IMG/VR virus record: IMGVR_UViG_2579778894_000006
DNA from: a virus
Taxonomy: Duplodnaviria; Heunggongvirae; Uroviricota; Caudoviricetes
Reading direction: 5' to 3' (one strand)
DNA length: 6,175 nt
Made by a program: the position numbers and the translations under genes. Position 1 is the first letter of the stretch. Each line of letters opens with the position of its first letter. Shown in pieces: positions 5,096 to 5,150 of the stretch. The notes under the pieces were generated by a model. That model was given only the letters and a program-made list of their open reading frames with translations. It made no database searches and was not told where the DNA came from.

Positions 5096-5150
5096 TATTT
5101 CTATTTCTATTTCTATTTCTATTTCTATTTCTATTTCTATTTCTATTTCT
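5096..5150. repeat. Hexanucleotide tandem repeat (TTTCTA/CTATTT), 8 perfect units plus partial units
   Basis: Perfect units at 5098-5145 with partial units on both sides, in the intergenic region between the cargo ORF start and the ninF/ninG junction. It creates the spurious FLFLFL… ORF at 5038-5289. Confidence 0.95.

Follow-up and report, generated by a model that had tools for sequence, protein, structure and literature searches.

VNTR-9, otherwise named O157-9, Vhec4 or TR1, is a typing locus of Shiga-toxin Escherichia coli that reportedly features in the schemes of Lindstedt (2003), Noller (2003), Keys (2005) and PulseNet, whose protocol is said to go back to Hyytia-Trees (2006). The locus is thus already known, and its use as one of the most discriminating markers for EHEC outbreak typing is established. 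Short-unit, hypermutable tandem repeats are also known between divergent genes as promoter contingency repeats, such as the TAAA tract of nadA in Neisseria meningitidis and the TA tract of hifA/hifB in Haemophilus influenzae. For VNTR-9 (Vhec4/TR1), published data give a repeat length of 6 bp, 6 to 23 repeats, 15 alleles, a diversity index of 0.90 and 31.7% null alleles, and both PulseNet primers are listed (PMC3321953, Table A1); the equivalence of Vhec4, TR1 and O157-9, with a 6-bp unit, is also recorded elsewhere (PMC3768571). Serial passage yielded three Vhec4 mutations (1.3e-4 per generation), two of them single-unit insertions and one a point mutation, and all changes but one across the nine MLVA loci followed were of whole units (PMC3777172). 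The name 'O157-9' additionally occurs in a bioRxiv paper, where it designates an isolate and not the repeat locus.

We investigated a hexanucleotide array in a window of 6,175 nucleotides (the whole stretch of DNA analysed) from a virus of the Caudoviricetes, IMG/VR record IMGVR_UViG_2579778894_000006. The Stx1-converting phage AU6Stx1 is 99.0% identical over 98% of this window. In AU6Stx1 and in E. coli chromosomes the gene order is O, P, ren, small ORFs, ninB, an adenine methyltransferase gene and ninE, followed in the related records by a minus-strand cargo gene, the gap that bears the array, an HNH endonuclease gene, ninG and then Q, which is reached via ninH in AU6Stx1 and via a serine/threonine phosphatase gene in the chromosomal prophages. 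The features considered here, in window coordinates, are:

3008–4861, minus strand: cargo ORF of 617 aa when read from its first ATG; the annotation starts it at the TTG at 4780 (590 aa).
4945–5303 (boundaries approximately ±10 bp), minus strand: decayed internal fragment of an IS3-family element of the IS911 group (blastn, translation, alignments, BLASTP).
5028–5289, plus strand: two overlapping ORFs, 5028–5198 reading (Ile-Ser)n and 5038–5289 reading (Phe-Leu)n (ORF list).
5081–5082, no strand: start of homology to the O157:H7 locus (partial matches, annotation and sequences of two O157:H7 loci, L004 and L005, and the reverse primer).
5096–5154, no strand: hexanucleotide microsatellite (TATTTC/TTTCTA)n (Tandem Repeats Finder, sequence, regular expressions, simulation, folding).
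5336–5377, plus strand: lambdoid junction of the ninF 3' end and the ninG start, the right boundary of a low-GC module.
5338–5364, minus strand: site of the PulseNet VNTR-9 forward primer GCGCTGGTTTAGCCATCGCCTTCTTCC (exact match; PMC3321953, Table A1).
5349–5915, plus strand: HNH endonuclease gene, 188 aa (Pfam, PHROG, PGAP, translation).

Tandem Repeats Finder resolved 5096–5154 as 9.8 copies of period 6 with 98% matches and 0 indels. Regular-expression counts gave nine perfect TATTTC units at 5096–5149 or, in the alternative register, eight perfect TTTCTA units at 5098–5145 followed by a variant unit, TTTCTG. The sequence across the array runs ...GTGGTCTGTTTTAA(TATTTC)9 TGTTTGTTGTGG..., and its minus-strand reading is (GAAATA)n, that is, (Glu-Ile)n. 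An earlier note on this DNA had placed eight or more perfect hexamers at 5096–5150, between the minus-strand cargo ORF (3008–4861) and the ninF-tail/ninG-start junction (~5336–5377), and both the count and the placement proved correct. The region that it calls intergenic is not featureless: the DNA around the array is a fragment of a transposase pseudogene. The longest period-6 run in the window extends over 55 bases, against a mean of 12–13 and a maximum of 17–20 in two sets of 1000 first-order Markov simulations, one with the composition of the window and one with that of its AT-rich segment, which rules out chance as the origin of the array. Within the window, no other perfect short tandem array reaches at least 4 copies by Tandem Repeats Finder or regular expression. 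Folding prediction found no intramolecular structure for the array as single-stranded DNA (minimum free energy 0 kcal/mol), and on this result hairpin-driven instability was rejected.

Judged by its sequence, the array with its right flank is VNTR-9. The forward primer matches the window at 27/27 positions, with 0 such matches expected by chance, and its site covers the ninF tail together with the ninG-type start codon. Even with 3 mismatches allowed, the window contains no site for the PulseNet reverse primer; it is present in the O157:H7 loci L004 and L005, inside a truncated IS30 beside the array. O157:H7 genomes match window positions 5082–5260 at 96–99%, and the partial matches begin at base 5082. 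The truncated IS30 is annotated at 3178–3995 of L004 and 3198–4015 of L005, and in both its end (...CAATTGAATCTACA) abuts GTGGTCTGTTTTAA(TATTTC)n, so that the junction corresponds to window 5081/5082. In O157:H7, IS30 thus adjoins base 5082, 14 bp to the left of the array, and all sequence left of the junction, the cargo gene included, is missing. We consider the window array orthologous to VNTR-9 of O157:H7, because the two share this 14-bp left stub, the array, and the right flank up to the primer site.

The resemblance extends to the 6-bp unit, the right flank as far as the ninG-type start, and the possession of many length alleles in 6-bp steps. The two versions differ to the left of the array, where O157:H7 has the truncated IS30 that carries the reverse primer, whereas the window has no reverse-primer site and retains an uninterrupted native flank, consisting of the rest of the IS3-family fragment and the cargo gene, both of which are lacking in O157:H7 VNTR-9. 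The terminal variant unit TTTCTG of the window is likewise absent from the two O157:H7 alleles that were read. We therefore recognise the window as an IS30-free, native-flank (non-O157-type) version of the VNTR-9 locus, and the IS30 event in O157:H7 as the cause of the removal of everything left of the junction, including the cargo gene. Since the reverse primer lies within an IS30 specific to O157:H7, prophages with the native flank are expected to appear as null alleles with the PulseNet primers; O26/O111/O103-type strains, and this window, carry the native flank and would be scored in this way. Some O157:H7 genomes (e.g. 644-PT8, 180-PT54 and 2571) match at two places, with the native-flank copy at ~1.54–1.58 Mb, and their second copy is presumably of the IS30 type found at ~1.23 Mb in other O157:H7.

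The sequence surrounding the array derives from an IS3-family transposase. Window positions 4956–5295 match the IS911 copies of phages Sf6 and SfII at 66% identity by sensitive blastn, and plasmid copies of IS3-family elements match the fragment at 72–73%. OrfA of this family has a helix-turn-helix and a leucine zipper, and OrfB is the DDE transposase. The fragment contains OrfA codons ~26–98 and the first ~25 codons of OrfB, with in-frame stop codons; it lacks the first ~25 orfA codons, most of orfB apart from that start, and the ends of the element on either side, homology stopping near 4945; neither terminal inverted repeats nor a complete element was found in the alignments. The minus-strand translation reads TELTKAMDVGISTIPRWRK*LHDKPQGKGKTLPPIIQKQIEIHELKKKPQQT(EI)nLKQTTTFLMSYSLNN. 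With the array collapsed, this translation is identical to IS911 OrfA residues 26–98 at 40/73 positions (55%, E 8e-26, BLASTP), and the stretch that follows, YRVDTLCYVFGVQCNIYKYWKN, shares 14/22 residues with the OrfB N-terminus (E 2e-8, BLASTP), of which ~22 residues are recognisable. A Pfam search with the conceptual translation of the OrfA part returned no match to this degenerate fragment. Homology to orfA codons ~26–98 and the orfB start thus accounts for ~300 bp of non-repeat DNA around the array, at 55% protein identity to IS911 OrfA and 66–73% DNA identity to IS911-group copies.

We additionally compared the array position with four intact relatives, in which it reads GCATTGAAATGGAGAATGAAATATTAAAAAAGG in DNA alignments, the site being composed of GCATT GAAATG GAGAAT GAAATA TTAAAAAAGG. 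The array stands in place of the imperfect hexamers "GAAATGGAGAATGAAATA" that encode 'IEMENEI' in the leucine zipper of OrfA, directly 5' of the A6G frameshift site; where IS3-family OrfA has this zipper heptad, the fragment has (EI)n instead. The frameshift motif itself reads TTAAAACAG in the window, against TTAAAAAAG in 4/4 intact relatives, so that the A6G slippery sequence AAAAAAG of IS911 and other IS3-family elements, which also have complete ends, is degraded here to AAAACAG. The (Glu-Ile)n frame on the minus strand contains stop codons and has no ATG, GTG or TTG start. By these sequence comparisons, the fragment is a relic and not a transposition-capable member of the IS3 family. It is only ~66–73% identical to any intact IS that we found, and the state of the site before the repeat would be that seen in these relatives. 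The GC content of the relic is ~0.31–0.38 in overlapping 300-bp windows. As this is below the GC content of IS911, which we take to be ~0.48, it suggests that cargo and IS fragment came together from a donor of low GC content, and that the fragment is not a resident IS911 in decay. No mention of an IS-relic origin of VNTR-9 was found in the literature searched; as far as we could find, this origin is apparently undescribed, and would be a minor addition at most.

To investigate copy-number variation we joined the two 156-bp flanks directly, leaving out the array, and searched with the product, which made the ranking of matches independent of array length. Both flanks were present in 245 complete E. 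coli genomes. The best 60 of these 245, with flank identity of 100% and spans of 347–425 bp, carry 4–17 units in 11 alleles, with a mode of 8 and a Nei diversity of 0.89, and in 60/60 the length differs from that of the window by a whole number of 6-bp steps. The comparison across genomes that the earlier note had proposed therefore reveals a copy number that is clearly not invariant, and its alternative suggestion of a hypervariable VNTR marker is correct, although long established through the use of the locus in MLVA. Regular-expression counts gave 22 units for strain 7_15_5C and 6 for phage AU6Stx1, and SH2026Stx1 has ~16 as judged by span. Among 26 IMG/VR contigs we found 2–13 perfect units, some arrays being interrupted by TTTCTG, TTTCCA or CTTCTA units, and such point-mutated units are expected in an ageing microsatellite. 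O157:H7-type loci carry 7–16 units among five informative matches, the IS30-containing query being swamped by IS30 copies; complete genomes with a locus of the IS30 type number ~283. Alleles are shared by 95NR1 and 95JB1 (both 6 units) and by four O26-type Japanese strains (8 units), each set being, we presume, of related strains. An exact search for the right flank in species-representative genomes gave 0 matches, and thus no short ancestral form of the array from outside prophages of E. coli.

We consider it about 90% probable that the array, VNTR-9, is a non-coding, neutral microsatellite that changes by slippage of whole units, and that was born within a dead IS3-family transposase gene. 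The leucine-zipper codons of intact OrfA already form three imperfect hexamers (GAAATG GAGAAT GAAATA), which would make a plausible seed. Under this scenario the IS element would have been truncated and inactivated first, after which the hexamers became perfect GAAATA units and expanded, an order of pseudogenisation and then expansion that we infer. Whole 6-bp units would then be gained and lost through slipped-strand mispairing at replication, within an unconstrained non-coding tract, producing an array hypervariable between lineages and yet stable enough within clones for typing. Slippage is the probable mutational mechanism, and is supported by the published passage experiments; it is the best supported because the observed changes are of whole units and the single strand is unstructured, so that hairpins need not be invoked. 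Loops of six nucleotides are poorly recognised by MutS-dependent mismatch repair, through which the array may escape correction. Its context suggests that the array is neutral. The locus would be a clear example of a microsatellite born from the imperfect codon repeats of a transposase coiled coil after the death of the gene, and our understanding of phage or host biology is unchanged by these results.

Several readings would instead give the array a function at the DNA or RNA level. The earlier note had suggested, and marked as inference only, that changes in repeat number could affect the spacing or topology of the cargo promoter, as in a contingency repeat whose length alters spacing, helical phasing or topology upstream of the cargo promoter. 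The array does lie in the 488-bp gap between the divergent starts of the cargo gene (4861) and the HNH/ninG gene (5349), is AT-rich and hypermutable, and by our estimate each 6-bp step would rotate the upstream DNA by ~200 degrees. A simple scan, which weak or non-sigma-70 promoters may escape, detected no sigma-70-like promoter on either strand between 4862 and 5500, its sole find near the array being a weak terminator-like site at 5205–5221 (+). By eye, a minus-strand TTGGTG-16-TATATT near 4908–4940 (-10 at ~4908–4913) is a weak candidate below the threshold of the scan, ~185 bp from the array, on which the array may have a long-range upstream effect. The array is at least ~235 bp from the cargo start codon, and so does not lie between a -35 and a -10 element, and it sits inside a pseudogene, with transposase-relic DNA, an unlikely home for an operator, continuing to its right as far as the ninF tail. 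The suggestion of tuning is thus unsupported. The strongest case against it comes from loci that have kept a highly polymorphic array although their cargo gene is deleted or broken: O157:H7 lacks the gene and keeps the array, which varies as much there and is among the most polymorphic MLVA loci (PMC3321953), and O111:H- strain 11128, in which the gene is split into two ORFs, has 8 units, the same as the window. The allele spread, broad and unimodal (4–17, mode 8), fits drift and slippage and not ON/OFF switching. The nadA and hifA/hifB tracts are associated with promoters, whereas no promoter overlaps or adjoins this array, which moreover persists without its candidate target and is not switch-like in its 6-nucleotide unit and unimodal alleles; of the hallmarks by which a promoter contingency repeat could be tested for here (promoter linkage, retention with the target gene) it displays none, and we regard a role of this kind as very unlikely. 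A role in the transcript is exceedingly improbable, namely that (UUUCUA)n forms a rut-like Rho-loading element on the pR-to-Q transcript, its length modulating Q, late gene and Stx expression. The plus strand of the array is G-free, predicted to be unstructured, and has regularly spaced UC dinucleotides, and the ~2.5 kb between ninE and the HNH gene, antisense to the cargo, bears no annotated plus-strand gene; the case otherwise leans on general knowledge of Rho and of nin-region terminators. It has no direct support, C makes up just 1 in 6 positions, N-modified transcription complexes resist Rho, and an untranslated stretch of that length would be Rho-sensitive with or without the array, which varies equally in the O157:H7 prophage remnant, where IS30 has cut it off from upstream phage transcription. 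No Rfam family matched anywhere in the window. Were array length phenotypic in either way, as a cargo spacer or topology element or as a G-free Rho-loading tract in Stx1-converting prophages, strains that are otherwise clonal would differ in the expression of prophage genes or toxin through a typing locus regarded as 'neutral'; we give this little credence.

That the array encodes a (Phe-Leu)n or (Ile-Ser)n repeat of variable length in a small plus-strand protein, its unit preserving the frame, is most unlikely. Both plus-strand frames are open through the array, PGAP annotates the ORF at 5028 as a hypothetical protein in many genomes, and the literature places VNTR-9 'inside ORF Z3935/Z3936' (PMC3321953). 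A stop-free hexamer, however, gives open frames by construction, and the 'hypothetical protein' over the array (e.g. 3167–3421 in the locus of strain 7_15_5C, L002) is called by PGAP only in genomes with at least 10 units, which identifies the call as an ORF-length artefact of the stop-free repeat. Such a length artefact probably also explains the published placement inside Z3935/Z3936. Neither ORF (5028–5198 or 5038–5289) has a Pfam, PHROG or NCBIfam match; both are antisense to the recognisable transposase pseudogene, which accounts for the sequence, and both start codons, at 5028 and 5038, fall on the left side of the IS30 junction (5082) and are lost in O157:H7, where the array is kept. 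We judge both ORFs spurious, and a plus-strand 'hypothetical protein' over the array should be treated as such in annotation. Short repeats can be mis-assembled, but nothing specific points to an assembly or sequencing artefact here, and its probability is negligible: more than 20 independently finished genomes share one and the same stretch of 539 bp, allele lengths are separated by exact multiples of 6 in 60/60 sampled complete genomes, and the locus is routinely sized by PCR in MLVA.

Finally, we examined the genes on either side of the array. GC content falls from ~0.5 to 0.27–0.39 between ~2700 and 5300, indicating that the cargo gene and the gap form a foreign, low-GC module. This module (~2700–5303), comprising the cargo gene and the IS3-family relic, lies between ninE and the ninF tail, where it has taken the place of most of ninF. 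The cargo protein has no match in Pfam, NCBIfam, PADLOC or PDB sequence searches, and matches only phrog_9230, where its function is given as unknown; it has a Ser/Thr/Asn-rich N-terminus and several hydrophobic stretches, and its gene a GC content of 0.27–0.39. On the right, the ninF/ninG junction is 95–98% identical by blastn to those of lambda, HK106, 21, 434 and others. The HNH gene starts on the ninG-type start codon (MAKPARRRC) and now occupies this junction. Its product matches HNH_3 in Pfam (5.5e-11) and phrog_99 (1.4e-71), in agreement with the PGAP annotation, with AP2 below the cutoff (E 2.5e-4, 21.7 bits against a cutoff of 33.3), and the 3' end of the gene overlaps a re-started ninG (5890–6175, +). 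The first nine codons of the HNH gene are, we take it, those of a lambda-type NinG, and the re-started ninG presumably differs from lambda at its N-terminus before rejoining it. The arrangement resembles that of a free-standing homing endonuclease gene that has entered ninG at its 5' end, with replacement of the target region. Just after the ninG-derived codons, at 5367–5407 (+), Tandem Repeats Finder detected an imperfect direct duplication of 20 bp (2 copies, 80% matches), which could be an insertion scar at the start of the HNH gene.
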